The notes: a model not told the origin generated them from the letters alone. Shown: positions 44,149 through 61,742, counted from the first letter of the stretch. The stretch is DNA of 64,000 bases from Xanthobacteraceae bacterium (GCA_031291445.1 JARLJA010000004.1:2754-66753); one strand, 5' to 3'. Numbers and translations are program-made.

Positions 44149-44233
44149 TTCCCTTTGCCGGGGCCGCGCCGGAAGCTGATGTCCGGCAGGCCGGGCAACG
44201 GTGCGCGGCACGCAGTCTCGAGATGACGGGGGC

Positions 44234-44542
44234 ATGGTGAGCGCAGAGACCTATGGCATCGCCGAGGCGACGCCCCCCACGATGCCGCGTGGCGCCGCGC
44301 TGGCCAAAAAGCGGCTGCGGATCGCGCTGGTGCTCAGCGCCGCGATGATCGCGATTTATTTCGGTTTCATGGCGCTGTTCGCGTTCGACAAGCCCCTGCT
44401 GGGAACGATGCTGGCGCCGGGGCTGTCGCTGTGCATCGTGCTCGGCCCGCTCGTCATCATCTCCTCGTTCCTGCTCTGCCTCGTCTACGTGCTGTGGGCG
44501 AACCGGGTGTTCGATCCGGGCATCCGCGATCTCGGCGCGTAG
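44234..44542 (+). CDS. DUF485 (YjcH-like) membrane protein
   Basis: Two TM helices; YVLWANRVFD; directly upstream of actP. Confidence 0.82.
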   Translation: MVSAETYGIAEATPPTMPRGAALAKKRLRIALVLSAAMIAIYFGFMALFAFDKPLLGTMLAPGLSLCIVLGPLVIISSFLLCLVYVLWANRVFDPGIRDLGA

Positions 44543-44560
44543 CAAGAGGCACCGACCAGC

Positions 44561-46123
44561 ATGGCCAACAATTCCCTTTCCATCGGCTTCTTCTTCGCCT
44601 TCATGGCGCTGACCCTGCTCATCACGTATTGGGCGGCGCGGCGCACCCGCACCACCGAGCACTTCTTCGCCGCCGGCGGCGCCGTCACCGCGTGGCAGAA
44701 CGGCTGGGCGCTGGCCGGCGACTTCCTCAGCGCCGGCGCGTTGCTCGGCATCGCCGGTATCGTCACCTCGAACGGCTTCGACGGCATGATCTACTCGATC
44801 GGATGGCTGGTGGGCTGGCCGATCATCCTGTTCCTGATCGTCGAACCGCTGCGCAATGTCGGCAAGTTCACCTTCGCCGACGTGGTGGCCTATAGGCTCG
44901 GCCAGAAGCCGGTGCGGATGGCGGCCGCGGTGGGAACCCTCGCCGTCATCATGTTCTACCTGATCGCCCAGATGGTGGCGACCGGATCGCTGATCAAGCT
45001 GCTGTTCGGCCTGCCCTATACCTGGTCGGTGGCGCTGGTCGGCAGCGTCATGCTGGTCTACGTGCTGTTCGGCGGCATGCTCGCCACCACCTGGGTGCAG
45101 GTGGTCAAGGCGGCCCTGCTGATGGCCGGCGGGGTCGTGCTCGCGGTCCTGGTGCTGACCCATTTCGACATGAACCCGCTGAAGCTGTTCGCGGCGGCGG
45201 CGGACAAATACGGCACCAAGGTGCTGCAGCCCGGATCGCGGGTGGTGTCGGGGCAGTGGGACGCGATCTCGCTCGGGCTCGGCCTGATGTTCGGCACCGC
45301 GGCCATGCCCCATGTGCTGATGCGAATCTACACCGTCAGGGACTTCAAGGCGGCGCGGCTGTCGATCCTCTATGCCACCGGCGTGATCGGCGTCTTCCAT
45401 CTCATGGTGTTCATCATCGGCTTCGGCGCCATGGTGCTGGTCGGCCCCGAAGCGGTTGCCAAGGCCGGCGGCGGCGGCAACATGGCGGCGCCGCTGCTGG
45501 CGTTGGCAGTCGGCGGCAACGCGTTCTTCGGCTTCATCTGCGCGGTGGCGTTCGCCACCATGCTGGCGGTGGTCGCCGGACTGACGCTGTCGGGTGTCGC
45601 AACTCTCTGCCACGACGTCTGGACCAACGTGGTCCGGCACGGCAGCGCGCCCGAGGCCGAGCAGCTCAAGGTGGCGCGGATCGCCACCGTTCTGATCTCC
45701 ATTCTCGCCATCGTGCTCGGGATCGCGTTCGAGGGCCAGAACGTCGCGTTCATGGCCGGGCTGGCGTTCTCGATCGCCTGCGCCGCCAATTTCCCCTCGC
45801 TGGTGCTCGCCATCACCTGGCGCCGCTTCACCACGCCGGCGGCGGTGGCCAGCATCCTGGTCGGCACGCTGAGCTCGCTGGTGCTGATCTATCTGTCGCC
45901 GACCATCCAGGTCGACATCCTGGGCAAGCCGCTGGCGCAGATCGAGACCGCATGGTGGTTCGTGTCGCTGCGCAATCCCGCCATCATCGCCATGCCGCTG
46001 TCGTTCCTGGTCGCGATCGTGGTGTCGCTGGCGACCACGGAAGCCAACGCCAACGCCACCTTCGACGAAATGCAGCGGCGGATCCTGTTCGGGCGGGGTG
46101 CGGCGGCGGTGCGGGAGCAATAG
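44561..46123 (+). CDS. actP: Cation/acetate symporter ActP-like (SSS family)
   Basis: ALAGDFLSA, GKFTFADV, GGMLATTWVQ, GTAAMPH, AANFP. Confidence 0.9.
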   Translation: MANNSLSIGFFFAFMALTLLITYWAARRTRTTEHFFAAGGAVTAWQNGWALAGDFLSAGALLGIAGIVTSNGFDGMIYSIGWLVGWPIILFLIVEPLRNVGKFTFADVVAYRLGQKPVRMAAAVGTLAVIMFYLIAQMVATGSLIKLLFGLPYTWSVALVGSVMLVYVLFGGMLATTWVQVVKAALLMAGGVVLAVLVLTHFDMNPLKLFAAAADKYGTKVLQPGSRVVSGQWDAISLGLGLMFGTAAMPHVLMRIYTVRDFKAARLSILYATGVIGVFHLMVFIIGFGAMVLVGPEAVAKAGGGGNMAAPLLALAVGGNAFFGFICAVAFATMLAVVAGLTLSGVATLCHDVWTNVVRHGSAPEAEQLKVARIATVLISILAIVLGIAFEGQNVAFMAGLAFSIACAANFPSLVLAITWRRFTTPAAVASILVGTLSSLVLIYLSPTIQVDILGKPLAQIETAWWFVSLRNPAIIAMPLSFLVAIVVSLATTEANANATFDEMQRRILFGRGAAAVREQ

Positions 46124-46156: not shown

Positions 46157-46954
46157 TCATGTGGATCCTGGGGGCCTGTCACTTGCAGCCAGCGCCGCGG
46201 CGATCGAGGCCTCGTCCCCCAGCATCACACCGCTCGTCTTGTGCACCAGCATTCGTTGCAAAAGGCCGAAGATCTGTTCGGCTGCGGCCGCATGGTTCAA
46301 TCCGCCGGCCCGAATGTTCGAGATGCAGTTGCGCCGTGAATCCGGCAATCCAGGCTCCGGGCCATAGGTGATGTAGACGCCCAGGCTGTCGGATGCCGAC
46401 AGCCCTGGGCGCTCGCCGACCAGAACCAGAACCGCCTTGGCGCCCAGCGCGTGACCGATCTCGTCCCCGAGCGCGACACGCGCCTGCGAGGCCAGGACCA
46501 CCGGACCGACGGAAAGACCGGCGGCATCGAAACGCGGCTTCAACACCGCCAGCAGCGGCGCCGCATTGAGCTGCACCGCCGTCGCCGACAACCCGTCGGC
46601 AACCACCGCAACGACATCGCTTGCGCTCCCAAGGGACGCGAGATGCCGGCGCGACTCCGCGCTCAGGCGACGTCCCAGATCCGGGCGCCGCAGATATTCG
46701 GCCCGCGTGGTCGCGGCGCTCACAGCCGCTTCCAGCGCGAAGCCGTGCCGTGCGATGGCCTGCGACAGCTGCCCGGCATCGAGCGCCGACCAGACGGCTT
46801 CGCGCGCACGGGCATGGTCGAGCAGAAAGCGTTGCGCCGCCCTGGTTGGAACCCCGGCGCCGGATCGCCCCAGCGCGATCCGTGCCTCGGTTCTTTCCCG
46901 CAGCGCCCGGAGCGCGCCGTGCGGCGAATGGACGGCGCGCTCGTCCTTGCTCAT
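46157..46954 (-). CDS. eutC: Ethanolamine ammonia-lyase small subunit
   Basis: ARIALGRSG, YLRRPDLGRRL, ADGLS, GERPGLS, RNCISNI. Confidence 0.93.
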   Translation of the reverse strand: MSKDERAVHSPHGALRALRERTEARIALGRSGAGVPTRAAQRFLLDHARAREAVWSALDAGQLSQAIARHGFALEAAVSAATTRAEYLRRPDLGRRLSAESRRHLASLGSASDVVAVVADGLSATAVQLNAAPLLAVLKPRFDAAGLSVGPVVLASQARVALGDEIGHALGAKAVLVLVGERPGLSASDSLGVYITYGPEPGLPDSRRNCISNIRAGGLNHAAAAEQIFGLLQRMLVHKTSGVMLGDEASIAAALAASDRPPGST

Positions 46955-48354
46955 GCCGCCTCGATGGAGGCGAGCAGCGGCAGCCGGGCAAGTGGGCCGG
47001 ACAGGAGATCCGGCTCGGATATCAGCCGCCCCTGCCGATCGGTCAGGCCAACGCGTTCGAGCCACGCCTCGAACTCCGGCGCGGGCGGCTTGCCGAGGGT
47101 TTCCCGGGCGAAGACCGCATCGTGATGAGACAGGCTCTGATAGTTCAGCATGATGTCATCCGAGCCGGGAACGGTGATGACGAAATTGACGCCGGCCGCA
47201 CACAGCGACATCAGGAGCAGGTCCATGTCCTCCTGATCGGCATCGGCATGATTGGTGTAGCAGACGTCGACCCCCATCGGCAGGCCGAGCAGCTTGCCGC
47301 AAAAATGATCCTCCAACCCGGCGCGGATGATCTGCCGGCCGTTGAAGAGATATTCCGGTCCGATGAAACCGACCACCGTATTGACCAGAAGCGGCGAAAA
47401 CTCACGCGCCACCGCATAGGCCCGCGTCTCCATGGTCTGCTGGTCGACGCCGAAATGCGCGTCCGCCGAAAGCGCGGAACCCTGGCCGGTTTCAAAATAC
47501 ATCAGGTTGCGGCCGAGCGTCCCGCGATCGAGCGACAGCCCGGCGTCGCAGGCCTCGCGCAGCACCGCGAGATCGACGCCGAACCCGGCATTGGCCTTTT
47601 GCGAGCCGGCGATCGACTGAAAGACCAGATCGACGGGGGCCTGGCGCTCGATCGCCTTGATCGCCACCGTGACATGGCCGAGGCAACAGGTCTGGGTCGG
47701 AACCTCCAACCGCTGCCGCAGGTCGTCGAGCAGCGAGACGATACGGATATAGTCGGCCAGCGTGTCGGTAGCCGGATTGACGCCGATCACCGCATCGCCC
47801 GAACCCATCAACAGGCCGTCGAGCGCCGAAATGGTGATGCCGGTCGAGTCGTCGGTCGGGTGGTTCGGCTGGTTGCGGGTCGAAAGCCGGCCGGGAAGAC
47901 CGATGGTGTTGCGAAACCGGGTGACGACATGACGCTTGGCGGCGACCGCGGTCAGATCCTGCAATCGCATGATCTTGGACACGGCGGCGACCATCTCCGG
48001 CGTCAGACCGAAGGTCAGCGCTTCGAGTTGCGGTTGGCCGATCTTCGGATCGAGCAGCCATTCACGGAAGTCGCCGACCGTCATGGAGGAGACCGGCGCG
48101 AAGGCCGCCGCGTCGTGCTGGCGCGCGATGAGGTCCGAGACCTCGTCATTCTCCGAGGGGATCAGCTCTTCCTCGAGAAACGTCTTCAACGGCAGGTCAG
48201 CGAGCGCCATCTGCGCCGCCAGCCGCTCGACCGGTCCCTCGGCGGCGATCCCGGCGAGTTGATCGCCGGATCGTTCCGGCGTCGCCTTGGCCAGCAGCGT
48301 CTTCAGATCGCCGAAGCGGAAGACGGTGTTCTCGATCGTCGTCGCATAGGCCAT
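46951..48354 (-). CDS. eutB: Ethanolamine ammonia-lyase large subunit
   Basis: RSGDQLAG, RNQPNHPTD, YFETGQGS, VVGFIGPEY, LNYQS. Confidence 0.95.
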   Translation of the reverse strand: MAYATTIENTVFRFGDLKTLLAKATPERSGDQLAGIAAEGPVERLAAQMALADLPLKTFLEEELIPSENDEVSDLIARQHDAAAFAPVSSMTVGDFREWLLDPKIGQPQLEALTFGLTPEMVAAVSKIMRLQDLTAVAAKRHVVTRFRNTIGLPGRLSTRNQPNHPTDDSTGITISALDGLLMGSGDAVIGVNPATDTLADYIRIVSLLDDLRQRLEVPTQTCCLGHVTVAIKAIERQAPVDLVFQSIAGSQKANAGFGVDLAVLREACDAGLSLDRGTLGRNLMYFETGQGSALSADAHFGVDQQTMETRAYAVAREFSPLLVNTVVGFIGPEYLFNGRQIIRAGLEDHFCGKLLGLPMGVDVCYTNHADADQEDMDLLLMSLCAAGVNFVITVPGSDDIMLNYQSLSHHDAVFARETLGKPPAPEFEAWLERVGLTDRQGRLISEPDLLSGPLARLPLLASIEAA

Positions 48355-48383
48355 CGTCGCCGCCTCTTTCGTCGCTCGCGAAT

Positions 48384-49202
48384 TCAGCCGGTGGTGAGAA
48401 GCGCCAGCGCCTCGGCGTGAAGCGCTGGCGTTGCCGCCGCCACCACCCGTCCGTCCGAAGCGAGCGTCAATGGGTTGCCGTCCCAGTCCGAGATGGCGCC
48501 GCCGGCCTGCTGTATGACCGGCACGAGCGCCATGTAGTCGTAAGGCTGCAGCCCGGCCTCGACGACCAGGTCGCAGTGACCGCTGGCGAGAAGGCCGTAG
48601 GAATAGCAGTCGCCGCCGAAGCGCCGCAGCGCGACGCCCTGGGTAATGCGGCGATAGGCCTCCATCGCCTCACCCACGAACGTCTCGGGAGACGTGGTGT
48701 AGAATCGGGCCGCGGACAGGCTGGAGCACGGGCTGGTGCGCGCCGGCTCGCCATTGAACAACGTCCGGCCGGCCGCGCCGACCCAGCGCTCGCCGGTAGC
48801 CGGAATGTCGATCAGCCCGAATAGCGGCCCCTCGCCACCGATCAGCGCTATCAGGGTGCCGAACAACGGAACGCCGGTAATGAAGCTCTTGGTGCCGTCG
48901 ATCGGGTCGATCACCCATGTCAAGCCGTTGCCCGACTTGATCCCCAACTCCTCGCCATAGATGCCGTGCGCTGGAAATCGGCTGGCGATCATGTCGCGCA
49001 GCATCTTCTCGATCGTGCGGTCCGCGATCGTGACAGGGCTCTCGTCGGCCTTGTGGTCGACATCGAGGGCACTGCGAAAGTATCGCATGGCGATCGGTCG
49101 AGCCGCGTCGGCAAGCTCCGAAGCGAAGGACTGGGCGTCCGCGACATCCACGGTTGCAGGACGAATGCCTTGGCTTTCGACGTGCTTCGGATCAAGCGAC
49201 AT
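48384..49202 (-). CDS. Inositol monophosphatase / HisN-like phosphatase
   Basis: GEE, WVIDPIDGTKSF, GGDCYSY, LQPYD; start codon uncertain. Confidence 0.88.
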   Translation of the reverse strand: MSLDPKHVESQGIRPATVDVADAQSFASELADAARPIAMRYFRSALDVDHKADESPVTIADRTIEKMLRDMIASRFPAHGIYGEELGIKSGNGLTWVIDPIDGTKSFITGVPLFGTLIALIGGEGPLFGLIDIPATGERWVGAAGRTLFNGEPARTSPCSSLSAARFYTTSPETFVGEAMEAYRRITQGVALRRFGGDCYSYGLLASGHCDLVVEAGLQPYDYMALVPVIQQAGGAISDWDGNPLTLASDGRVVAAATPALHAEALALLTTG

Positions 49203-49296
49203 CGCAGCCTCTGCCCCAGCCGGGAGCGGCACGTTCGCTGTGGGAGACAACCACTGGAATCATAGGCAACTTTCGCAGTTTGAGCACTTCGGAAGC

Positions 49297-50061
49297 TCAG
49301 GCGGCAACGATCTTGCCGACGTGTTTCTTCCTTATTGCAGAGAGATGTCCCTGATCGGCGCGTCGGTCGGTCACCAGGACATCGACCTGGTCGCAGCCGC
49401 ACAGGCCGACCCGGCTCGTCTTGCCGAGCTTGCTGTAGTCGGCAAGAATCATCACGCACTCCGCGCGATCGATCATCACGCGTCCAAGCTGCGCCTCCGC
49501 GAGATCATAGCTGGTCGCCCCGTGTTCGGCATCGATGGCCACGGGCGACAGGATCGCGACATCCGGTCGGAATTGCTCCATTTGCGCGATCGCCAGCTCG
49601 CCGAAGGTGCCCGGAACGTCGTTACCGATGCGCCCGCCCAGCAGGATCACCGTGGCATTGGCCTGCGCGGCGCGTATGGTGGTGGCCACATCGAGCGAAT
49701 TGGTCACCACCGATACGTCCGGTATGCTGCTCAACGCGGCGGCGAAAGCGAGCGTGGTCGTACCGGTATCGATGGCGCAGAGCATGCCGGGCTCGATGAG
49801 CGCCGCAGCGGCCATCCCGATGCGCCGCTTCTCGGCCTCGCTGGCGCGCATGCGGGCCTTGAAGGGCGGCTCCTGCTCCGCGGGCGCAGCCACGACGCCG
49901 CCATGGACCCGCTTGAGCAATCCGGCCGATTCGAGATCCTGGATGTCGCGCCGGATCGTCTCCCGCGAAACCTCGAGCTCCTTCATCAGGAGATCATTGC
50001 TGATCTGCCCGCGCACGGTGAGCAGCGCCAGGATGCGATGATGTCTGTCTTTTGCCCACAC
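49297..50061 (-). CDS. DeoR/GlpR family transcriptional regulator
   Basis: VSRETIRRDIQDL, RVHGG, IDTGTT, VVTNS, DYSK. Confidence 0.92.
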   Translation of the reverse strand: MWAKDRHHRILALLTVRGQISNDLLMKELEVSRETIRRDIQDLESAGLLKRVHGGVVAAPAEQEPPFKARMRASEAEKRRIGMAAAALIEPGMLCAIDTGTTTLAFAAALSSIPDVSVVTNSLDVATTIRAAQANATVILLGGRIGNDVPGTFGELAIAQMEQFRPDVAILSPVAIDAEHGATSYDLAEAQLGRVMIDRAECVMILADYSKLGKTSRVGLCGCDQVDVLVTDRRADQGHLSAIRKKHVGKIVAA

Positions 50062-50196
50062 GGTCTGCGGTCCTCAGCATATTGCCTGCATTTTATTCAA
50101 CTTCTCGCCGATGGACACGGTCGACCTTGTCCTGCCACGCCGGAGCGGCGTGGGGTCGCTTGCCGGTCTGGCAGCGTCGCGCGGCGCCTTGCCTCA

Positions 50197-52014
50197 CTAT
50201 GTGACGCGATCTTCTCCTGCAAGATGACAGGCCACGATCCCGCCCTGCGGCAAGTGATGGACCGGCGGTTCCTGCTGCCGGCAGACCGGAAGGGCCTGCG
50301 GACAGCGGTTGGCAAAGGAACAACCGGCGGGAATGAGCAACGGCGAGGGCGGCTCGCCTTCGACGAGATAGTCGTCGCGCGCATAGGGCGATTCCTCGAG
50401 CGTCGGCGCCGCCGACAGGAGCGCTTTCGTATAGGGGTGCTGAGGCGCGAAGAACAGCATCTCGTTCGAGACGAGCTCGACGATCTTTCCGAGATACATG
50501 ACCGCCACGCGCGAACAGACGCGCCGCACCATCGCGAGATCATGGCTGATGAACAGGTAGGTGATCCCGCGAGCACTCTGCAACCGCTCGAAAAGCGCTA
50601 TCAATCGCGTCTGCTCGGTCTGGTCGAGCGCCGACAGTGTTTCGTCGAGCAGCAGGATTGCAGGCTCCAATACGAGGGCTCGGGCAAGATTGATCCGCTG
50701 CCGCTGGCCGGCGGACAGGCCAACCGGCAGCTTGGAATAGAGGCCCGGATCGAGGCCGACCTCCACCATCGTGTCCGTCACCCGCGTCCTTCTCTCGGAA
50801 GCGAGCATCGAGCGGTGCAGGCGCAACGGCTCGGAGATGATCCGGCCGACCGTCCAGTGTGCCGGGATCGAACCATAGGGGTCCTGGAGCACCAATTGGA
50901 GCCTGGCGCGAAGATGGAAGCGATCATTGCGGGACATTTTGCCCAGGTCGACGCCGTCAAAAGAGATCCGGCCTGCGTCCGGCATGTCGAGCCAGGTGAG
51001 AAGCCGCAGCAACGTCGATTTGCCGCAGCCCGATTCACCGACGATGCCGAGGCTCTCCCCGGATTTGACGTCGAAGCTGACGCCCCGGACTGCCTGGATG
51101 GATACCGATCCAAACAACGAACGCTGGTTGCGGACGCGATAGTTGCGCTTCACGTCCTGGACGGACAACACCGTCGCCGCATCGGCCTTGACCGCCGGAT
51201 GCGCCATCTCCCTGCTCCAGATCCGCGGGATCTGCGCGATCAACGCCTGCGAATAGGCCGTCTCGGGATGCGCCGCCAGCCGTTCCGGAGTCGAGCGCTC
51301 GACCACTCTCCCCTCTTCGAGCACGACGAGCCGGTCGGCGATGTTCTTGACCATGGGCAAGGAAGACGAGATGAACAGGATGGCGGTGTTCACTTCATTG
51401 CGCAGCATCTGGAACAGGCGGATGATCTGCGCGGCGACGGTGACGTCCAGCGGCTGGGTGACGTTGTCGGCGATCAGCAATTCCGTGCCGCCGATCATCG
51501 CATCGACGATCGCCGCGCGCTGGATCATGCCGCCGGAAAACTTGCTCGGCAGCTCGCCGGCCCGCAACCGCGCATCCGGAATCCTCACGGTCTCGAACAA
51601 TTCGACCACGCGGTCCAGTGCTTCCTTGTGGCCGACTTCCGGACGCACCGCGCGAAGCTTTTCCGCGATCTGACGACCGATCGGGATCGTCGGATCGAAT
51701 ACGGTGGTTGGATCAGCACCGACATAGCCGATCCGCCGGCCCCGTATCGCACGCAATTGCGCCGCGTCCGCGCCGACCATGTCGACGCCGTCGAAACTCA
51801 CCGCTCCCCCGGTCACCGACAGCGCCGGATCGAGCCATCCGATCAGCGCCTTGGCGAGCACGCTTTTGCCCGAGCCGCTGCGGCCGATGATGCCGAAGGT
51901 CTCGCGGCGGCTCACCGCAAATGAGATGTTGTCGAGGACGACCTTGCTGCGTCCGCCGATACTTGCGGCAACGCCGAGGTTATCGACGCCCAGGAGAATG
52001 TCGGACGGCATCAC
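50197..52014 (-). CDS. Fused dual ATPase of a peptide/opine/nickel-family ABC transporter
   Basis: GRSGSGKS and GESGCGKS Walker A motifs; FSGGM and LSAGQ; C-terminal GCSFANRC. Confidence 0.92.
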   Translation of the reverse strand: MMPSDILLGVDNLGVAASIGGRSKVVLDNISFAVSRRETFGIIGRSGSGKSVLAKALIGWLDPALSVTGGAVSFDGVDMVGADAAQLRAIRGRRIGYVGADPTTVFDPTIPIGRQIAEKLRAVRPEVGHKEALDRVVELFETVRIPDARLRAGELPSKFSGGMIQRAAIVDAMIGGTELLIADNVTQPLDVTVAAQIIRLFQMLRNEVNTAILFISSSLPMVKNIADRLVVLEEGRVVERSTPERLAAHPETAYSQALIAQIPRIWSREMAHPAVKADAATVLSVQDVKRNYRVRNQRSLFGSVSIQAVRGVSFDVKSGESLGIVGESGCGKSTLLRLLTWLDMPDAGRISFDGVDLGKMSRNDRFHLRARLQLVLQDPYGSIPAHWTVGRIISEPLRLHRSMLASERRTRVTDTMVEVGLDPGLYSKLPVGLSAGQRQRINLARALVLEPAILLLDETLSALDQTEQTRLIALFERLQSARGITYLFISHDLAMVRRVCSRVAVMYLGKIVELVSNEMLFFAPQHPYTKALLSAAPTLEESPYARDDYLVEGEPPSPLLIPAGCSFANRCPQALPVCRQQEPPVHHLPQGGIVACHLAGEDRVT

Positions 52015-52925
52015 AGGCCTCCCAGGACCCGGTTACGGGCACGTTCGAGAGCGACCCCCATCATATTGACCGCGAGCAGGACGACGATCAGGAAGACGCC
52101 GGGAAGCGACGCAACCCACCAGGCATTCATCAGATATTTGCGGCCGTCGGCGATGATCGTTCCGAGCGTCGGGGTCGGGGGCTGCAATCCGAGGCCGAGA
52201 AAATCCAACGTGGCCTCGAAAATCATCAACCGGGCCAGATCGAGCACGGCCGCGAAGGCCAAGGGCGGCAAAACCACCGGCGCGATCAGAAGGCCCAGGA
52301 TCCTCAGATCCGAGGCGCCGAGTACGCGTGCCGCCCGGACGTATTCCCGCTCTCGTTCACCGAGAGCTGCGGCGCGAGTCACCCGGGCATATGTCGGCCA
52401 TCCCGCCAGGGTCAGGACGAGCACGACGAGCGCGGGTGTCGGGCGGGTCACGCCGAGGATGGTGATCGCCAAGATGATCGGGGGGATCGACAATTGCACG
52501 TCGACGACGCGCATCAGCAGTTGGTCGGTCAGGCCTCCGTGGAAGCCGGAATACAGGCCAATCGCGGCGCCTACCGCAAACGTCAGCACCACCGCGGCGA
52601 GGGCAAGCAGGAATGATATCTGAAGACCGACGAGGCTGCGGGACAGCATGTCTCGGCCGAGCTGGTCCGTCCCGAGCGGATAGGCCCAGCTGCCGCCGGC
52701 GAATGCGGGTGGCAGCAATTTCTCCCTGAAGTGCATCACTTGCGGGTCCGCGCCGGACAACAGCGGATAGAGGAATGCGCCCAGCACCAGGACGACGAAG
52801 AGGCCGAGACCGACCGTGAACCACGGCGACTTGCGGGTTTCCAGCCAGATTCGCCGGGCGACCGACAGCTCCTTTTCGTCGGCAACCAGCGCTTCGGAGA
52901 AATCTGCGTCGATGACGGTCATCAA
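52011..52925 (-). CDS. ABC permease (DppC-like)
   Basis: YPLGTDQLGRD, EYVRAARVLGAS, LGLGLQPP. Confidence 0.92.
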   Translation of the reverse strand: MMTVIDADFSEALVADEKELSVARRIWLETRKSPWFTVGLGLFVVLVLGAFLYPLLSGADPQVMHFREKLLPPAFAGGSWAYPLGTDQLGRDMLSRSLVGLQISFLLALAAVVLTFAVGAAIGLYSGFHGGLTDQLLMRVVDVQLSIPPIILAITILGVTRPTPALVVLVLTLAGWPTYARVTRAAALGEREREYVRAARVLGASDLRILGLLIAPVVLPPLAFAAVLDLARLMIFEATLDFLGLGLQPPTPTLGTIIADGRKYLMNAWWVASLPGVFLIVVLLAVNMMGVALERARNRVLGGL

Positions 52926-53911
52926 TATTCGAGCCTCGGATCGATCAGGCCGGCAAGGAGATCAACGAGGATGTTGATCACGACGAAGATGGCGCTCGTC
53001 AGCATGGCGATCGCCTGGATCAGCGGGAAGTCGCGCTGCAGCACCGCTTCGATGGTCAAGGCTCCGAGGCCGGGGTAGTCGAAGATATACTCCACCACCA
53101 ACACGCCACCCAGCAGCGCCGAAAGCTGGACGCCCAACATGTTGAGCAGCGGCACCGAGGCGCCTTTCATGGCGTGGTGGTAGATGACCTGGCTCGGATG
53201 CAATCCGCGGATCAAACCGATACGGACGAAGTTCTGACTCATCATGGCGCCCAGCGACAGCGCCAGCGAGCGGACCAGCACCGGAATGATCTCGATGGCG
53301 AGAACGATCGCCGGCAGGATCGAATAGGTAACGTCGCGATAACCCACCGCTGGCAGCCAGTGCAACTGGATCGAAACGACAAGAACCAGAATGCCGGCAA
53401 GCCAGAAATTGGGCATCGAGACCAGCACCGAGGACAGCATCAGCGCCGCGGCATCGGGCCATCGCCCGGCATGGAGGCCGGCGAACAGGCCGATCGGAAT
53501 CGACACCGAGAGCGCGATGGCCATGGCCATCATCGCCAGTTGCAGGGTGAGGGGCAGACGGTCGAGGATCAGATCGATCACGCGGGCGCGCTCCGCCCGC
53601 GTCGGGTCGTCGGCCCGGCCGCCGGCCACGGCGCTGGCACCCGACTTCGGGCGCACGAACGACGTGCCGAAATCGCCGTGCAGAACGACCTTCTTCAGGT
53701 AGATGAAATATTGGACCAGCATCGGACTGCGCAAGCCCATCTCGGTGGCGATCTTCTCCACCGTCTCTTCGGTCGCCATCCCGCCGGCGATCATGCGCGC
53801 AGGGTTGCCCGGCCCGGTCCGCAGCAGGCAGAAGACGATGAGAGACGCCAGCAGCACAATCACGACGGATTGGGCGAGACGGCGCAGCAAAAATGACGTT
53901 ACACGAACCAT
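52922..53911 (-). CDS. ABC permease (DppB-like)
   Basis: HGDFGTS, SMPNFW, YIFDYPGLG, DPRL. Confidence 0.92.
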   Translation of the reverse strand: MVRVTSFLLRRLAQSVVIVLLASLIVFCLLRTGPGNPARMIAGGMATEETVEKIATEMGLRSPMLVQYFIYLKKVVLHGDFGTSFVRPKSGASAVAGGRADDPTRAERARVIDLILDRLPLTLQLAMMAMAIALSVSIPIGLFAGLHAGRWPDAAALMLSSVLVSMPNFWLAGILVLVVSIQLHWLPAVGYRDVTYSILPAIVLAIEIIPVLVRSLALSLGAMMSQNFVRIGLIRGLHPSQVIYHHAMKGASVPLLNMLGVQLSALLGGVLVVEYIFDYPGLGALTIEAVLQRDFPLIQAIAMLTSAIFVVINILVDLLAGLIDPRLEY

Positions 53912-53949
53912 GCCGTCTCGCGATCTCCGACTAAGGTGGATCTGGTGGC

Positions 53950-53978
53950 ATCCTCCCGCGACGGAGCCGCGGGAGGAT
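53950..53978. terminator. Stem-loop between the SBP and permease genes (stabiliser or attenuator)
   Basis: atcctcccgcg-acggagc-cgcgggaggat, 11-bp perfect stem without a U-tract. Confidence 0.5.
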
Positions 53979-53983
53979 CGCCT

Positions 53984-55525
53984 TCAGGCCAGGGTTGCGT
54001 TGTTGAAGTCGATCTGGGCGGTCGGCAGGATCCGTACACCGCTCAGGCGACTGGTCATCGCGTGCAGAAGGTTGGAGTTGAAGAGCACCAGATTGGGCAG
54101 CTTGTCGGCGATGGCCGGCAGCGTCACCGTTTCCAGGGCTTCCTTCCTCAGTTCCAGCGTCGGCGCCAGCATCTCTTTCTCGATAGCGGCATCGAGAGCC
54201 GGATCCTTGGCGCCGGTGATGAGACCGACCTTGGAGTAGTATTGGAACACGATCTGGAGATTGGGCTCCGGCGTGCCCACCGCCCATCCACCGTCGATCA
54301 TGTGTCCCGCGTTGGGATTGTAGTAGCGATCGTTCCAGGCCGCGACTTCCAGCACGGTGAGCGTGACCGGAAAGCCCTGGGCTTGGAGCATCGCCGTGAT
54401 GGCTTCGCAATATTCCTTGGTCTTGGGATAGAAGCCCGTCGATGTGATGTATTCGATCTCGGGCATGCCCTTGCCGCGGGGATAGCCCGCCTCGGCCAAC
54501 AGCTGCTGACATAGCTTTGGATCGAACTTGCCGTAGTCCGGCAGCGCCCGATAACCCAGCTTCATCGGCGGCAGAACGCTGTCTGCGGCGTAGCCGGCGT
54601 CGCCGGCGATGCCGAGGATCGCCTCGCGGTCGATCGCGGCTGCCGCAGCGCGACGCACCCGCGAGTCGTCGAACGGCCTTCGGCCATTGCGGAAATGAAG
54701 ATACTTGTTCTCGACGGATTGCAGCTTGCTGGTGGTGATCCCGGCTTTCGACTTGAGGCTGAGATACTGTTCGGGCTCCAGCCGCTCGATCAACTCCGCT
54801 TCGCCGGACTGCAATGCGAGGATGCGCGCGTTGCCGTCAGGAACGTGGCGGACGACGACCCGCTTGATCTTCGGCTTGCTGGGTCCCCAGTAGTGCTCGT
54901 TGGCTTCGAAGATGACTTCGTCCTTGTCCTGGCCGACGAGGCGGTAGGGGCCGGTGCCGTTCATGCCGCGTTGCAGCGCCTTGCCGTCGGCGACGTCCTT
55001 GGCCCGCAGGATCGGACAATACGCCTGCAGGAAGAGAAAACTGCTGATCGGAACGCCGAGGCTCTTGGTCGAGACCGTGATCGTCTCACGGTCCTTGATG
55101 CCCACTTCGAGCGGTCCGGCAAAGAAGGCGCGCGCGATCTTGGGCTGGGAATAATGCTCCAGGGAGGCCTTGACGTCCTCGACCGTAAGGTCGGCGCCGT
55201 CATGGAATTTGACCCCCTGCCGGATCTTCATCTCGACCGTGAAGGGATCGATCAGGGAATGGCCGGTCGCCAGCGACGGAACCGGCTTGATCGGGTCGAG
55301 GCCGGCAGTCATCGGATAGAGCAGCAGATAGTCGAAGGCGAGATATTCACAATTGACGTTCGCCAAGGTCGTGTTGGCGGCGGGATCCCAATTGCCCGTG
55401 GTGTTCTCCGCCATCAGCCAACGCACCGTGTTGGACGGCGCCGCCCCGGCCGGCCTGATGATGGAGGGCGCGGCCAGCGTGGCCACGGTAGCGCTCTGCA
55501 GGAACCTTCTCCGACTGACGTTCAC
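53984..55525 (-). CDS. Family-5 ABC substrate-binding protein with a Tat signal
   Basis: SRRRFLQ; GVKFHDG...TVEDVKAS, NGTGPY, FDDSRVRRA. Confidence 0.92.
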   Translation of the reverse strand: MNVSRRRFLQSATVATLAAPSIIRPAGAAPSNTVRWLMAENTTGNWDPAANTTLANVNCEYLAFDYLLLYPMTAGLDPIKPVPSLATGHSLIDPFTVEMKIRQGVKFHDGADLTVEDVKASLEHYSQPKIARAFFAGPLEVGIKDRETITVSTKSLGVPISSFLFLQAYCPILRAKDVADGKALQRGMNGTGPYRLVGQDKDEVIFEANEHYWGPSKPKIKRVVVRHVPDGNARILALQSGEAELIERLEPEQYLSLKSKAGITTSKLQSVENKYLHFRNGRRPFDDSRVRRAAAAAIDREAILGIAGDAGYAADSVLPPMKLGYRALPDYGKFDPKLCQQLLAEAGYPRGKGMPEIEYITSTGFYPKTKEYCEAITAMLQAQGFPVTLTVLEVAAWNDRYYNPNAGHMIDGGWAVGTPEPNLQIVFQYYSKVGLITGAKDPALDAAIEKEMLAPTLELRKEALETVTLPAIADKLPNLVLFNSNLLHAMTSRLSGVRILPTAQIDFNNATLA

Positions 55526-55609
55526 TCCGCTCTCCTCTGGTTGTATGACTTGGTTCGAAATGTCCCGGACACGCCGCGCTGCGCGCCAGGCGGTCGACGT
55601 GATCGACGG

Positions 55610-56545
55610 TCAAATCGCGCGCAACGCCTCTTCCCAGCCGGGAAAGCGCATGGCGTGCCGGGTCCGCAGAAACAGAAGATCCGAGTACTTTGCGAAATCG
55701 AATGGAATCGACGAAATCCGGCTTTGAAGCGCGGCCCATAGGCCCCACGTCACGCCGGCGACGCCCCCATAGAGATGGATACGCGCTTCGGCGGCGGCAG
55801 AGAAAGCCCCGTCGTGGATTTCGATGACTTCCTGGATCTTTGACCGGCTGAGGAAATTCTCGAACGAGAGCATCGCGAGATCCCAATAGGGATCGTTGTT
55901 GGAACCGTATTCCCAGTCGATGATCATGACGTTCTTGCCGGCGTCGATCATATAATTGGTGACGTAGGCGTCGTTGTAACACGCGCACAGGGCGAAGCCG
56001 GCCGCGGTGACCGCCGCGTTGGCGCGGCTGCATTGCCAGAGCAGATAATCGATGTCCCGCGGCAGGCGGGCGCCGTGGGTCCTGCACTGATCGAGCCGTT
56101 CGGACAGCTGATCGAATCCCGTCTTGGTCCGCGACAGCGTTTGAGTGCCGTGGATCGCGCGATAGGCCTGAACGACGTTGGAGAGGATCGTCCTGTCGAG
56201 CATGTCGCCGACATTGCAGCTGCGGAAGGATTCGAGAAACTCGTGCACCTCGATCTCGCCATCCTCGATGTAATGCAGCAGCTTCGGCGCATAGCCGGCG
56301 TCGGCGGCCTTGGTCGTGGCTTCGCGCGCGAGTTTTCGATCGATGAAGATGTCGGTCTTGTCGCCCGGAATCTTCATGAAATAGCTTGCGTCGTCTTCGG
56401 CGACGAAGATTTTCCAGTTCAGGTTGGTGATGCCTCCATTGATCCGCTCATAGGAGACGCTCTTGCCGCGCCACGCCGCGACCTTGCCGATCGCCGCTTC
56501 GACGGCCTGCCCGAGTGGATCCGTTGCCTCGCCAAGCTTCGTCAC
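55610..56545 (-). CDS. Choline/ethanolamine kinase-like phosphotransferase (LicA-like)
   Basis: GGITN loop, MKIPG, CYNDAYVTN (Brenner motif, His to Tyr), IDWEYG, NDPYWDLA. Confidence 0.85.
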   Translation of the reverse strand: MTKLGEATDPLGQAVEAAIGKVAAWRGKSVSYERINGGITNLNWKIFVAEDDASYFMKIPGDKTDIFIDRKLAREATTKAADAGYAPKLLHYIEDGEIEVHEFLESFRSCNVGDMLDRTILSNVVQAYRAIHGTQTLSRTKTGFDQLSERLDQCRTHGARLPRDIDYLLWQCSRANAAVTAAGFALCACYNDAYVTNYMIDAGKNVMIIDWEYGSNNDPYWDLAMLSFENFLSRSKIQEVIEIHDGAFSAAAEARIHLYGGVAGVTWGLWAALQSRISSIPFDFAKYSDLLFLRTRHAMRFPGWEEALRAI

Positions 56546-56552
56546 TGCGGCC

Positions 56553-57518
56553 TCATGCTCGTCTCAACAGGGAATCTGCGTCCCAGACGCCCAGCCAATA
56601 GGTTCCGCGCAACAAGCGGTTCTGGGCATATTTGTAGAACTCGACCGTGGTGGCGCGCGGAGAGGTCGCATGCGCCAGCAGGGCCCAGCATCCCCACAGG
56701 AAATCGTCGACGATCATGTACAATTTGGCACGCGCGACGGCGCGCTGATCGGAATGACCGAGATACAGTTCGACCGCCGCCTCGATCTCGTCGTCGAAGC
56801 TGCAAAATTCGAGGCAGAAGGCACCCACGTCGTAGAGTGGGTCGCCGTTCGCGGCCTGGTCGAAGTCGACGAGCCGGACCTCGTTCGCCGGGCCGAGCAT
56901 GACATTGCTGAGCGCATTCTCGCCATGGAGCGGCGCGAGATCGATCCCGGCGGCGGCGATCCCCCGCTCGATGCGCTCGGTCCAGTCCGCCAGCGTATGA
57001 AACGCGAGCGGAAGCGTCGACGCCGACGGCGTTCTCTCCGCCAGGGAGTTGATCCTTTCGCGGTAGGCACGAATGACCTCGAAGGGACTGCGCGTTCTGC
57101 CCAGCAGGCCGCTGCGGTGCCAGGCGCGCTTGGCGGCGAATATCGCCGACCGGACCGCGATCGTTTCGAGATCCGCGCGCGACGCCATGCGCCACGCGTC
57201 CGGCGCCAGGAAATCGAACAGCACCGCGGATCTGTCCGCGTCATGCGCGATCACGGCCGGCCCGATGCCGCATTGTCCCGCCCGGGTGGCGGCCGCGACC
57301 GCCGCGTCGAGATCGATGAAGGGCAGCATGTCGGGCGCGTAGATCTTGAGAAAGACGGGCGCGCCGGAGCGGGGGCGGACCAGACAAGGCGTCGCATCGA
57401 TCGCCAGATGCATCGGCATGATGATCGGCGGCATCATCACGATGCAGTCCGGGTCCGACCCGACATGACCGGCAAAGCCGGCGAGCGTGAAATCGAGATC
57501 CGCCTCAGTCGCGCTCAT
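56553..57518 (-). CDS. Divergent choline-kinase-fold protein (possible pseudokinase)
   Basis: FLKIY, HGENALSN (catalytic Asp to Glu), VDFDQA, GDPLYDVG; no GGxTN loop. Confidence 0.75.
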   Translation of the reverse strand: MSATEADLDFTLAGFAGHVGSDPDCIVMMPPIIMPMHLAIDATPCLVRPRSGAPVFLKIYAPDMLPFIDLDAAVAAATRAGQCGIGPAVIAHDADRSAVLFDFLAPDAWRMASRADLETIAVRSAIFAAKRAWHRSGLLGRTRSPFEVIRAYRERINSLAERTPSASTLPLAFHTLADWTERIERGIAAAGIDLAPLHGENALSNVMLGPANEVRLVDFDQAANGDPLYDVGAFCLEFCSFDDEIEAAVELYLGHSDQRAVARAKLYMIVDDFLWGCWALLAHATSPRATTVEFYKYAQNRLLRGTYWLGVWDADSLLRRA

Positions 57519-57688
57519 GACCTGATTGACCTGATGTCCATTTCGACCCGACCCCGCCCTGCCGTCGCCACCGTCAATATACACAAATATGCACAAACGC
57601 ACATTTTATTGTCAAGCGGGTTTTATCGAGCTAAGAGTTTCGCAGTCGTAACCAAGCATGTCGCCCGCCAGCCGGCGGCGCCTGCAGG

Positions 57689-59095
57689 ATGGGTAGGATG
57701 ATGGGAACGAAGCAACTTTGGCAGTTGAACGCCGTCGAAATGCTCAGCGCCTACGCGGCGCGTCGCCTTTCGCCGGTCGAGGTGATGGAAGCGATTCTGG
57801 CGCGCGCGGCTGCCGTGAATCCGGCGATCAACGCGCTGTTTCACATCGTGCCGGAAAGCGCGCTGGAGCAGGCGCGGGCTTCGGAGACGCGCTGGGCCGC
57901 AGGCTCGCCGACCGGGTTGCTCGACGGCGTGCCGGTATCGGTCAAGGACAGTATCGCCGTCGCCGGCATGCCCTATTGGCGCGGCAGCAAGGCCTACATG
58001 CAGAGGCCCAATCCGACCTACGATTCGCCGCCGGCTGCCCGCCTCAAGGAAGCCGGCGCGATCATCTTCGCCAAGACCACCATGCCGGACCTTGGCATGT
58101 TGGGCGCGGGCGTCAGCTCCGCGCACGGGATCACGCGAAATCCCTGGAACGTCGCCTTCAACACCGCCGGCTCGAGCAGTGGCGGAGCGGCGGCGGTGGC
58201 CGGCGGCATCGGGCCGCTCACCGTCGGCTCCGACATCGGCGGCTCCGTCAGGCTGCCGGCGGCGCTTTGCGGCCTGGCCTCGATCAAGCCGACGCAGGGC
58301 CGGATTCCCCATCTGCCGCCGAGCCCAATCCGTTCAGCCGGCCCGCTGGCCAGGACGGTTGAAGATACGGCGCTCTTGCTCTCCGTTCTCGCGCGACCCG
58401 ACGCGCGCGACTACGGCAGCCTGCCCCCGGAGCAGATCGCCTATCATGAACGTCTCGCCGACAGTGTCGCCGGCCTGAAGCTGGGGCTCTTCCTCGAGTC
58501 CGGTTTCGGCATGTCGGCGGAGCCGGCGGTTGTCGACGCGATCGAAACGGCCGCGGCCTGTCTTTCGGCAGCCGGGGCTGAAATCGTTCGCCTGCCGGCC
58601 CTGATCGACATCGACATATCTGCGGCGTTCAACCTGGTCTTCGCCGTGCGCACCCGCATCGAACTCGATGCCATGTCGCCGGACGCGCGCAGTGGCGTTC
58701 ACGCCGCGGTCCTGCAACTCGCCGCCTCGGCGGATAAGATCTCGGCGATCGAACTGGGACACGCCTACGACCAGATCGAACGTCTGAAAGCCGGAGTTAT
58801 CGCGGTCTCGGCGAAATTCGACTACCTCCTTTCGCCGGCGACGCCGGTCGTGAACTTTCCCGCTGAAGCGATCGCACCCGATCCCGACCAGCCGCTCGGC
58901 TGGGTCGGCTTTACGGCTGCGTTCAACCAGACCGGACAGCCCGCGGCCGTGGTCTGCTGTGGTTTCGACGCGCGTGGCCTGCCGATCGGACTCCAGATCA
59001 CCGGCAATCGTTTCGACGACCTTGGCGTCTTGAGTGTCGCCTCGGTCTACGAAGCGAGGCGCGGCTTCACCATCGAATGGCCTCACCTGTCGTAG
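57689..59095 (+). CDS. Amidase-signature family hydrolase
   Basis: GVPVSVKD, GSSSGG, GSDIGGSVRLPA, GLPIGLQ; start could be 57698 or 57701. Confidence 0.92.
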   Translation: MGRMMGTKQLWQLNAVEMLSAYAARRLSPVEVMEAILARAAAVNPAINALFHIVPESALEQARASETRWAAGSPTGLLDGVPVSVKDSIAVAGMPYWRGSKAYMQRPNPTYDSPPAARLKEAGAIIFAKTTMPDLGMLGAGVSSAHGITRNPWNVAFNTAGSSSGGAAAVAGGIGPLTVGSDIGGSVRLPAALCGLASIKPTQGRIPHLPPSPIRSAGPLARTVEDTALLLSVLARPDARDYGSLPPEQIAYHERLADSVAGLKLGLFLESGFGMSAEPAVVDAIETAAACLSAAGAEIVRLPALIDIDISAAFNLVFAVRTRIELDAMSPDARSGVHAAVLQLAASADKISAIELGHAYDQIERLKAGVIAVSAKFDYLLSPATPVVNFPAEAIAPDPDQPLGWVGFTAAFNQTGQPAAVVCCGFDARGLPIGLQITGNRFDDLGVLSVASVYEARRGFTIEWPHLS

Positions 59096-59837: not shown

Positions 59838-60020
59838 GGCGGCTCCTGCGGTGACCTGGGGAACTCATAGCTCCACCAGATCGAGCCAAATAGGCCGCAA
59901 GCTCCAAGAATCCGGTCAAAAACGCCAGTGTTGAGCCGAAATCCCGCACGATCTATCCTGACGGCATTGCCCATGGTCGATCAGGTCGAGCGTCGGCCAT
60001 TTCGATTGCGAGGACGTGTG

Positions 60021-60956
60021 ATGGACGTGCTTGGAGACATCCTGAGGCTGCTTCGAACCGAAGGGCACATTCACGGTCGGCTGGAACTGCGGGGACCATT
60101 TGGCTTCAGCTTCCCGACCGAAGGCGGCCACTTCCTGATCGTCACCCGCGGCACCTGCTTTCTCACCATCGATGGCAAGGAGGCGGCGGCCCTGGAGGGC
60201 GGCGACTTCGTCTTCCTGCCGACGTCGAAGCCGTTCTCGCTGTCGAGTTCGGACGATGTCGAACACGTTCGGGATTTCAATGCTGACGAAGCTGAGAGCT
60301 ACGTAAGAACCGGCGTCATCGCATTCGATGGCGGCGCCGGAGCACGGGTTTCGCTGGTGTCCGGATGTTTCACCTTCCCTGCTCCCGAGAGTTATCTTCT
60401 CATCGAACATCTCCCCGCCGCCGTGTATTTGCAGGCGTCGGGGCCCCACGCGACGCCATGGACCAACGGCATCGTCCAATTGATCGTCCATGAAACGACG
60501 CATTCCGGATTGGGCGCGACGGCCGTCATCGACCGGCTGGCGGAGGTGTTGTTCGTCCATGCCCTTCGCGAGCATTTCGGAAGCGCGTGTCCGGACCGGA
60601 CCCCGAGCTGGCTGCGGGCGTTGACCGATCCGAGGATCGGCCCCTCGATCAGGAGCATTCATTCCGATCCGGGCCGCGGCTGGACCGTCGATGAGCTGGC
60701 GCGGTCGGCGGGGATGTCCAGGTCCGCGTTCGCCGCCAGGTTCAAGGCCGTGGCGGGGACGACGCCGCTCGAACACCTGACGCGATGGCGAATGGCGCGC
60801 GCGGCCGGCATGATGACGGGGACGAGACCCGCCAAGCTCGACGTCATCGCGGCCGCTGTCGGCTACGAGTCGGAGAGTTCGTTTCGAAAGGCCTTTCGCG
60901 AGGTCATGGGCGCCTCGCCATCCGAATACAGGGGGCGGGTTCCTGAATCACGCTAA
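60021..60956 (+). CDS. AraC family regulator (cupin_6 plus HTH)
   Basis: WTVDELARSAGMSRSAFAARF, VGYESESSFRKAF. Confidence 0.92.
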   Translation: MDVLGDILRLLRTEGHIHGRLELRGPFGFSFPTEGGHFLIVTRGTCFLTIDGKEAAALEGGDFVFLPTSKPFSLSSSDDVEHVRDFNADEAESYVRTGVIAFDGGAGARVSLVSGCFTFPAPESYLLIEHLPAAVYLQASGPHATPWTNGIVQLIVHETTHSGLGATAVIDRLAEVLFVHALREHFGSACPDRTPSWLRALTDPRIGPSIRSIHSDPGRGWTVDELARSAGMSRSAFAARFKAVAGTTPLEHLTRWRMARAAGMMTGTRPAKLDVIAAAVGYESESSFRKAFREVMGASPSEYRGRVPESR

Positions 60957-61058
60957 GCAACCTGCGGCCGAAGGCACGGTCCCTCCGCGCCACCCCGCCC
61001 GCGGCAAAATCGCCCGATCGGCGAAGGGACCGCGCGGCGGCGAACGAGCGGCCCGGAC

Positions 61059-61742
61059 TCAGGGAGCGGGCTGGTCGGCGCGCAGACCAGCCGGCGCCGC
61101 CGCGGACCGGGCGGCATCCCTGGCGTCGGCGCGCGGGGGCCGGCTGTCCCGGATCGACGCAAGGTATTGCCGGGTCGATCGGGTCAGCGCCTCGATGCCG
61201 CGCCTGGATCGGGCCCGGTTGGGCTTGGCCAGTTCCTGCAGGATCAGGCCGTCGACGCCGGCGAGCATGAAATGCGCCACAGCCCTGCACTCAGCGGCGG
61301 TGAGATCTTCCGTCCCCGCCGGCGCGCTCCGCAGCAGGTCGAGATAGAGCTGTACGTAGGCGTCGTACTGCCGTTCGGCCAGCCACGCGGCGCCTTCGCG
61401 CAGGGCGTAAAGCGTCAGCTCGTATTGCACGATCTGGAGCACGCGCGTCCGCATGATCCAGCGCCACGTCGCCTGCAGGATCTGCTCGACGCAGTTGCCC
61501 AGGTCCGTGCTGGTCCTGACCTCGTCGCGAAGGGCGCGGGTCATTTCGTCGATCAGGGATTCGAGCACCGCGAGCAGCAGCGAACTCTTGCTGTCGAAAT
61601 GGTAGTGCAGGGTCGCGAGCTGGACGCCCGCCTCCGCGGCGATCTTGCGCGTGGTCGCCCCCTGCACGCCGGTGGCGGACAGCGCGCGCACGGCGCCTTC
61701 GATGATCTGCGTCCGCGTCCGGTCGCCCTTGCCCTTGGCCAT
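61059..61742 (-). CDS. TetR family transcriptional regulator
   Basis: TTRKIAAEAGVQLATLHYHFDSK. Confidence 0.9.
   Translation of the reverse strand: MAKGKGDRTRTQIIEGAVRALSATGVQGATTRKIAAEAGVQLATLHYHFDSKSSLLLAVLESLIDEMTRALRDEVRTSTDLGNCVEQILQATWRWIMRTRVLQIVQYELTLYALREGAAWLAERQYDAYVQLYLDLLRSAPAGTEDLTAAECRAVAHFMLAGVDGLILQELAKPNRARSRRGIEALTRSTRQYLASIRDSRPPRADARDAARSAAAPAGLRADQPAP

Follow-up and report, generated by a model that had tools for sequence, protein, structure and literature searches.

What would a pair of genes for ethanolamine ammonia-lyase be doing at the end of a row of kinase, importer, regulator and phosphatase genes, with an amidase gene facing away from them? The question is raised by positions 46,157 to 59,095 of a 64,000-nucleotide stretch of DNA from a Xanthobacteraceae bacterium (GCA_031291445.1, JARLJA010000004.1:2754-66753; the whole stretch is hereafter called the window). 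In the usual account of ethanolamine use, cells take up the free amine and cleave it with EutBC. In this cluster, ethanolamine seems instead to arrive in conjugated form, by way of a dedicated and mobile front end made of kinases and an amidase. Judged from sequence comparisons, the cluster would serve the breakdown of a small, hydrophilic compound that carries ethanolamine, or a very similar vicinal amino alcohol, in amide linkage, a reading to which we assign a probability of about one half.

The minus strand of the region holds ten co-oriented genes (46157-57518), identified by an open reading frame listing and by Pfam and NCBIfam family scans. From the first kinase gene (kinA), the order continues with a second kinase gene (kinB), a substrate-binding protein (SBP), two permeases, a fused ATPase, a DeoR-family repressor, a HisN-like phosphatase, eutB and eutC, and a spacer of 170 bp separates kinA from the divergent amidase gene (Table 1). 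The scans thereby bore out the gene set, the divergent amidase and the spacer described in an earlier, sequence-only reading of this DNA. That reading had also remarked on the lack of microcompartment genes and of eutA, which now extends to the whole source genome (6.3 Mb, 96% complete): no gene for a bacterial microcompartment shell protein (PF00936) matched anywhere in it, and no EutA (PF06277) match rose above the cut-off. Its remark that codon usage is less GC-biased than in the flanks proved real but modest, with a G+C content at third codon positions (GC3) of 0.77-0.83 in the ten cluster genes other than kinA, against 0.84-0.93 in most flanking genes and 0.75 in a flanking AraC gene.

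Homologs of kinB were collected into three context sets: one by identity, one of 31 orthologous loci from named genomes, and one of further stretches of those genomes. The window proteins were run on the collected loci by tblastn; 34 loci were long enough to judge, and many others were too short. Loci from relatives are phylogenetically non-independent, and absences in the genomes of relatives are read from assemblies without established completeness. The amidase, kinA and kinB were found together in 33 of the 34 informative loci. These came from Rhizobiales, Rhodobacterales, Caulobacterales, Sphingomonadales, Burkholderiales, Vibrio and a Desulfobacteraceae bin, and included Lichenihabitans, Bradyrhizobium, Mesorhizobium, Methylobrevis, Chelatococcus, Oryzicola, many Rhodobacterales, Caulobacter, Novosphingobium, Burkholderia/Burkholderiaceae and two Vibrio species. 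A DeoR gene occurred in or beside most of the related clusters; in Vibrio, it follows a phospho-lyase gene. The recurrence of this gene set in dozens of unrelated genomes shows that the grouping is not due to chance, and the comparative neighbourhoods support the earlier claim that they form a functional unit. The idea of a single system stood for the core of amidase, kinA and kinB, but eutBC and the phosphatase turned out to be interchangeable accessories, several core genomes having no eutB. Likewise, the importer of the window is an ATP-binding cassette (ABC) system as described, but elsewhere it is replaced by other transporter types.

An Opp-type ABC system like that of the window was found in about 26 loci. 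Burkholderia and one further locus (L006) displayed a small membrane protein and an SSF symporter, while others displayed a major facilitator superfamily (MFS) transporter, a TonB-dependent receptor (Caulobacter, Novosphingobium) or a family-1 SBP system (L089). Such transporters would suit a small, hydrophilic substrate, peptide-like or anionic in nature, better than a lipid. The SBP of the window carries the twin-arginine motif SRRRFLQ at its N-terminus, and its best solved relatives (5U4O, GsiB/YliB and AccA) are all distant (AccA, 1.6e-21). Candidate substrates include aminoacyl- and gamma-glutamyl-ethanolamides, as well as fragments of ethanolamine-containing carboxylate siderophores of the vibrioferrin/achromobactin type.

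No kinB ortholog was found in 30 relatives of the source genome (eight of the same genus, ten of the same family and twelve of the same order). Meanwhile, a metagenome contig (L091:1-19074) carries a cluster composed of DeoR, amidase, kinA, kinB, phosphatase, TonB receptor, eutBC and MFS genes. It is flanked on one side by TraG/ParB/AlpA-type genes and on the other by a phage-type tyrosine integrase adjoining guaA, and is carried as cargo by an integrative element that is probably conjugative. Together, the lack of orthologs in the relatives and the integrative element indicate that the cluster is mobile. Two neighbours were each seen a single time: a phospholipase-D-like gene near the cluster of an alphaproteobacterial bin (L028:13831-15069) and a sulfatase near that of the Desulfobacteraceae bin (L026:6319-7890). 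Both may be clues to where the substrate comes from in nature.

The genes that follow the core provided insights into its product. A neighbourhood search for the kinase pair with eutBC, as had been suggested, found the two together in ten loci: the window, Caulobacter (two loci), Novosphingobium, Pseudooceanicola, Alloyangia, Mangrovicoccus, Poseidonocella, Frigidibacter and the metagenome contig. All ten clusters also encode the HisN-like phosphatase, and eutBC was never present without it (10/10). In Burkholderia, eutB lies 5 kb from the cluster. Meanwhile, the clusters of both Vibrio species displayed a different gene content, in which a gene of the class-III-aminotransferase fold, followed by DeoR, is divergent from a row of SBP, permeases, ATPase, amidase, kinA and kinB. 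The best solved relatives of this aminotransferase-fold protein are the human ethanolamine-phosphate phospho-lyase (6TOR, 1.4e-96) and an Arthrobacter phospholyase (5G4I, 6e-95), with the next match (2e-59) roughly 120 bits behind, and among NCBIfam models the protein fits best the lyase portion of kinase-lyase fusions, PRK06148. No HisN-like gene was found in the genomes of the two Vibrio species. A lyase gene 45% identical to that of Vibrio adjoins the Chelatococcus cluster. We also considered whether the Vibrio enzyme is PbfA, the hydroxy-aminoethylphosphonate lyase. The best solved relatives of PbfA are gamma-aminobutyrate transaminases, at about 30% identity (PMC8154272), and the Vibrio protein matches ethanolamine-phosphate phospho-lyase far better than this pattern allows, so this identity was rejected.

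Two further back ends were observed. A Burkholderiaceae bin that shares the gene order of the window encodes, after the phosphatase, a glutamine-synthetase-like enzyme and then an aldehyde dehydrogenase, and no eutB was found in its genome. Several loci of Rhodobacterales and Roseitalea type, together with L089 and L090, have a GlpO/GlpA-like flavoprotein and a second flavoprotein. No phospho-lyase ortholog was found in the source genome, Caulobacter, Alloyangia or Novosphingobium, all of which have the phosphatase and eutBC; the best match to the lyase in the source genome is a generic aminotransferase (29-33% identity, 138 bits). Each back end is a set of enzymes that could dispose of O-phosphoethanolamine or of ethanolamine, and their variety behind the same core suggests that the intermediate common to all is O-phosphoethanolamine or a close analogue of it. 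The phosphorylated amino-alcohol intermediate postulated in the sequence-only reading is strongly implied by this interchange of phospho-lyase, phosphatase with EutBC, and phosphatase with the glutamine-synthetase-like enzyme, and the tie between ethanolamine and the kinase pair and amidase gains comparative support.

Both the phosphatase and eutBC of the cluster are second copies in this genome. The best solved relative of the phosphatase is the plant histidinol-phosphatase 5EQ7, and a HisN that scores better against TIGR02067 (339.6 bits) is encoded elsewhere in the genome. In a tree of HisN-like proteins, eight housekeeping-like copies are separated, with 100/99 support, from a clade that holds all ten cluster-linked copies and four others. 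We propose that the cluster enzyme is a phosphatase of O-phospho-amino-alcohols, with phosphoethanolamine as its predicted substrate. A published paper on HolPase (PMC10804674) concerns HAD-type enzymes and gives no residues for the IMPase type.

The EutB tree tells of repeated capture. In an ordinary EutB tree, the cluster-linked proteins are scattered over at least three distinct groups, and are 62-72% identical to unlinked copies; that of the window is sister to an unlinked copy of Pseudooceanicola. Caulobacter, Alloyangia and Novosphingobium have no eutB besides the one in the cluster. Since the tree has no single cluster clade, eutBC was captured independently at least three times. This topology also rules out a specialised EutB clade for the cluster copies, and the cluster EutBC is predicted to be a normal ethanolamine ammonia-lyase. 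The other eutBC of the source genome lies on a 6.7-kb contig, C19 (L065:4430-6552), beside fabF- and fabG-like genes; neither a permease nor EutR is visible on this fragment.

The two kinases differ markedly in their active sites. The catalytic motifs of KinB, namely the glycine-rich loop GITN, the Lys, C[FYH]ND....N and IDWEY..NDP.WD, are kept in 34-35 of 35 orthologs. In LicA, choline is held by Thr29, Asp176, Tyr197, Glu213, Trp251 and Trp254 (PMC4364537). By alignment, these correspond to T40, D192, Y213, E229, W267 and W270 of KinB, and this LicA-type choline pocket is conserved in 32-35 of the 35 orthologs. KinB thus displays the features of the choline/ethanolamine kinase family, while KinA lacks two of them, the Asp of the Brenner motif and the Gly-rich loop. 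In KinA, the catalytic Asp is replaced by Glu (HGEN) in 32/32 orthologs, the P-loop Thr by Asp in 31/32, and the residue at the position of LicA Tyr197 by Arg in 28/32. The Lys, the Asn, the Mg-binding Asp, the Glu and both Trp are retained across the 32 orthologs. KinA is clearly under selection, and may be an active kinase, an altered one or a pseudokinase.

The amidase belongs to the amidase signature family, and its Lys/cis-Ser/Ser triad (K86/S162/S186) is near-invariant in 32 orthologs. A specific kinship to fatty acid amide hydrolase (FAAH) was not found, plant FAAH (1.2e-39) ranking below a Rhodococcus amidase, GatA and an aryl acylamidase, and no membrane anchor is evident in the protein.

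Based on these findings, we postulate the following route. The conjugate would be imported by the Tat-exported SBP (exported through the twin-arginine translocation pathway) and the Opp-type ABC system, after which KinA and KinB would phosphorylate its free hydroxyl group with ATP. This O-phosphorylation may trap the molecule, add an anionic handle and create the effector of the DeoR repressor, which would sit on TGTGCATAT-type repeats over the kinA promoter. The cytoplasmic amidase would then cut the phosphorylated amide into an acid and O-phosphoethanolamine, the HisN-like phosphatase would take the phosphate off, and the B12-dependent EutBC, working without a microcompartment, would convert ethanolamine into acetaldehyde and ammonia. 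In other genomes the exit may be a lyase, or the phosphatase followed by gamma-glutamylation. The substrate class, the action of the kinases before the amidase, the substrate of the phosphatase and the effector and operator of the regulator are what we infer here. The order of kinase before amidase is drawn from two observations: eutBC was never recruited without the phosphatase, and, in the four genomes without a lyase ortholog, a kinase and a phosphatase acting on free ethanolamine would form a futile cycle.

Several points weigh against this route. The weightiest is the LicA-like pocket of KinB for a cationic amine, which would suit free ethanolamine better than a neutral N-acyl amide, and KinA also keeps part of the LicA cationic-amine residues. 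The model leaves the need for two kinases unexplained, and spending ATP on a phosphate that is then removed is unusual. The operator repeat motif was not found upstream of the DeoR-phosphatase-eutBC genes in the window; hence eutBC is only a candidate for co-regulation. Finally, a strict anti-correlation between lyase and eutBC holds only in part: Pseudooceanicola and Mangrovicoccus have a phospho-lyase plus the phosphatase and eutBC, so that the back ends are not strictly exclusive.

Some of these points would be accommodated if the amidase acted first. It would then free ethanolamine, and KinB together with KinA would be the ethanolamine kinase of the classical kinase/phospho-lyase route. 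In lyase-free genomes, the kinase and the HisN-like phosphatase would buffer or trap ethanolamine as phosphoethanolamine, a pool that would supply the DeoR effector and meter the flux into an EutBC without a microcompartment. The conserved LicA pocket for a cationic head group in KinB fits this order, as do the phospho-lyase homologs of the Vibrio and Chelatococcus clusters, with PRK06148 as the best NCBIfam match. However, in the four genomes that have the phosphatase and eutBC without a lyase ortholog, a kinase followed by a phosphatase would only burn ATP, and the constant company of the phosphatase with eutBC is unexpected if the amidase directly yields free ethanolamine. We hold this account to be doubtful.

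The proposed route of phosphorylation before hydrolysis might also serve another amino alcohol. The same architecture would then handle 2-amino-1-propanol, 1-amino-2-propanol, serinol or a similar compound as its amide, or as an N-carbamoyl derivative in genomes that carry a second module, with EutBC and the lyase acting on the analogue. This second module was observed in about 16 loci (among them L003, L019, L021, L024, L025 and L040-L042; for example, L040:2301-5457) and is absent from the genome of the window. It comprises a DeoR gene, a hydrolase of the M20 hydantoinase/carbamoylase family and a second, about 35% identical kinase pair, the first member of which retains the catalytic Asp. 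Its content suggests a parallel route for an N-carbamoyl analogue. The presence of such a pair beside the M20 hydrolase speaks for a different amino alcohol, as do the kinship of the phosphatase to histidinol-phosphatase, which acts on the phosphate of a 2-amino-1-alkanol that bears a side chain, and the GlpO-like flavoenzymes of some clusters, which suggest an intermediate resembling glycerol phosphate. Against it stand the ordinary placement of the cluster EutB proteins in their tree, their being the sole eutB products of three genomes, and the lyase, which is closest to ethanolamine-phosphate phospho-lyase. On balance, we regard this possibility as unlikely. A wider scheme, which we offer tentatively, is a widespread mobile pathway of phosphorylation followed by hydrolysis. 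In it, KinB and its constant partner KinA, with the Asp-to-Glu and Tyr-to-Arg changes in its active site, would tag neutral N-acyl ethanolamines with phosphate (and N-carbamoyl ones where the second module is present), which would let the amidase or the carbamoylase recognise and cleave them. The phosphoethanolamine formed would leave by one of four interchangeable exits: the phosphatase with EutBC, the phospho-lyase, the phosphatase with gamma-glutamylation, or a GlpO-like dehydrogenase.

The regulatory DNA of the window provided further insights into the organisation of the cluster. Across the region, a sigma-70-like promoter was matched only in the spacer between the amidase and kinA. Three tandem copies of TGTG[CT][AG]T[AT]T overlap this promoter and are a candidate DeoR operator (Table 1). 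This motif is clustered nowhere else within the 64-kb window. Repeats like TGTGCATAT were also found in the amidase-kinA spacers of Burkholderia, Burkholderiaceae, Bradyrhizobium, Caulobacter and Methylobrevis, and their presence in such distant loci fits a conserved operator. The strong stem-loop in the 72-bp spacer between the SBP and the first permease may stabilise the transcript or terminate it in part, which would yield an excess of SBP. A second spacer, of 135 bp (50062-50196), separates the ATPase from DeoR and contains a hairpin, CCACGCC...GGCGTGG. It also holds TTGAATAAAATG, which resembles TTGACAATAAAATG at the kinA promoter, so that an internal promoter for DeoR, the phosphatase and eutBC may lie here. 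Because of the hairpin after the SBP and the 135-bp hairpin gap before DeoR, the cluster may consist of two transcripts, and eutBC may be on one of its own. That a peptide- or opine-type importer, the kinases and the amidase are accidental neighbours of an unrelated spare hisN and a spare eutBC would agree with this gap, which has no operator-like repeats, and with the many genomes that hold the core without eutBC, but it is highly improbable, as the phosphatase and eutBC joined the same core repeatedly and independently in at least four orders, and gene order, EutB lineage and HisN-like lineage differ among the clusters that have them.

Table 1. Genes and regulatory features of the cluster, in window coordinates
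Feature	Position	Strand	Family match or remark
Amidase-signature amidase, cytoplasmic	57689-59095	+	Divergent; PF01425 294 bits, NF005450 527 bits (cut-off 458)
Candidate DeoR operator, three tandem TGTG[CT][AG]T[AT]T repeats	57577-57603	-	Overlap the kinA promoter
Sigma-70-like promoter, TTGACA-18-CATATT	57615-57586	-	In the amidase-kinA spacer; sole such match of the region
kinA, divergent APH/choline-kinase fold with altered active site	56553-57518	-	PF01636 31.6 bits
kinB, choline/ethanolamine-kinase-like	55610-56545	-	PF01633 74.5 bits (cut-off 29)
Periplasmic SBP, family 5, twin-arginine signal	53984-55525	-	PF00496 229 bits
Strong stem-loop, SBP/first-permease spacer (72 bp)	53947-53982	-	Inverted repeat ATCCTCCCGCG / CGCGGGAGGAT
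ABC permease, OppB/NikB-like	52922-53911	-	PF00528 and PF19300
ABC permease, OppC/NikC-like	52011-52925	-	PF00528 and PF12911
Fused double ATPase, OppD/OppF-like	50197-52014	-	Two PF00005 domains and oligo_HPY
DeoR-family repressor	49297-50061	-	HTH_DeoR and DeoRC
HisN-like IMPase-family phosphatase	48384-49250	-	TIGR02067 291.7-291.9 bits (cut-off 275)
eutB, ethanolamine ammonia-lyase large subunit	46951-48354	-	PF06751 680 bits; NF011649 673 bits (cut-off 554)
eutC, ethanolamine ammonia-lyase small subunit	46157-46954	-	PF05985 278 bits; NF003971 288 bits (cut-off 230)

The start of kinA is the ATG at 57518 and not a GTG further upstream, and kinB lies 7 bp downstream of kinA. The second permease gene overlaps each of its neighbours by 4 bp. 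The true start of eutC is the ATG at 46954, within an ATGA overlap with the stop of eutB, so that the two are translationally coupled. The likely start of the phosphatase gene is the ATG at 49202.

Genes for a LysR regulator, a DUF485 small membrane protein and an ActP-like cation/acetate symporter (43072-46123, plus strand) are convergent with eutC. Acetate is the expected end product of acetaldehyde oxidation. As the Burkholderia and L006 clusters contain SSF transporters, we considered this symporter as a member of the system. It displayed no significant similarity to those transporters and forms a typical DUF485-ActP pair with its own LysR, and is probably an unrelated neighbour. Beyond the amidase (61943-63316, plus strand, and 59928-61754) lie genes for a class-III aminotransferase (NF005683, 659 bits; 24% identity to the Vibrio phospho-lyase), a TetR regulator and an AraC-cupin regulator. 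The latter is RclR-like and not EutR, and the AraC gene near the cluster gave no match to an EutR model. No link between these three genes and the cluster was seen in other genomes.

These findings have implications for the understanding of ethanolamine as a nutrient. The front end is common to soil, lichen, plant-associated and marine bacteria, and learning what its substrate is would give the ethanolamine field a new nutrient or possibly a signal. Three large groups of enzymes now called hypothetical, namely the PRK07042 amidases, the kinases annotated as thiamine-kinase-like and the extra HisN copies, would thereby gain functions, and the automatic annotation of the phosphatase as an enzyme of histidine biosynthesis would be corrected. 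Furthermore, a kinase pair in which one partner has a conserved Asp-to-Glu change is an attractive case for the evolution of bacterial kinases and pseudokinases.

Among known systems, the canonical microcompartment eut operon does not include this cluster, as the genome gave no PF00936 match and no PF06277 match above the cut-off. The short, microcompartment-free eutBC loci of Proteobacteria and Actinobacteria are closer: they share the same full-length, typical EutB and EutC and likewise have no shell proteins and no EutA. In contrast to them, the window cluster has no eat/EutH permease and no EutR, while it adds the Opp-type importer, two kinases, amidase, phosphatase and DeoR, and eutBC is optional. 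The route of kinase and phospho-lyase for ethanolamine and aminopropanol reportedly goes back to work on Erwinia in the 1970s. With this route (ETNPPL/AGXT2L1 type; PRK06148), the cluster has in common a kinase of the APH/choline-kinase fold and a phosphoethanolamine-type intermediate, and the Vibrio and Chelatococcus versions include a lyase homolog. It differs in that the genome of the window has the phosphatase and EutBC instead of a lyase, and in that the amidase and the second, altered kinase are constant, whereas the known route takes free amino alcohols.

The LicA and eukaryotic choline and ethanolamine kinases have the same Brenner and choline-kinase motifs and the same head-group pocket as KinB. 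However, KinB is only about 25-30% similar to them, belongs to a catabolic operon without a cytidylyltransferase and is paired with a partner, KinA, in which the catalytic Asp is Glu. The acc operon of Agrobacterium, which serves the use of agrocinopine, combines a DeoR repressor, an SBP5-ABC importer, an IMPase-type phosphatase acting on a phosphorylated breakdown product and the phosphodiesterase AccF. The cluster shares with it, at the family level, the DeoR regulator, the family-5 SBP with an Opp-like ABC system and the IMPase-family phosphatase. Unlike the acc operon, it has no match to a phosphodiesterase family among its eleven genes in the family scans, it adds kinases, an amidase and EutBC, and its SBP is only weakly similar to AccA. 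The full-text literature on combinations of eutBC, amidase, choline kinase, phospho-lyase and N-acylethanolamine yielded no description of such a cluster, in agreement with the sequence-only reading. Collectively, these comparisons make the cluster a member of neither the short eut loci, nor the kinase/phospho-lyase route, nor the acc operon, and indicate that it probably brings known enzyme families together in a combination and a logic not described before, within the catabolism of amino alcohols by bacteria.

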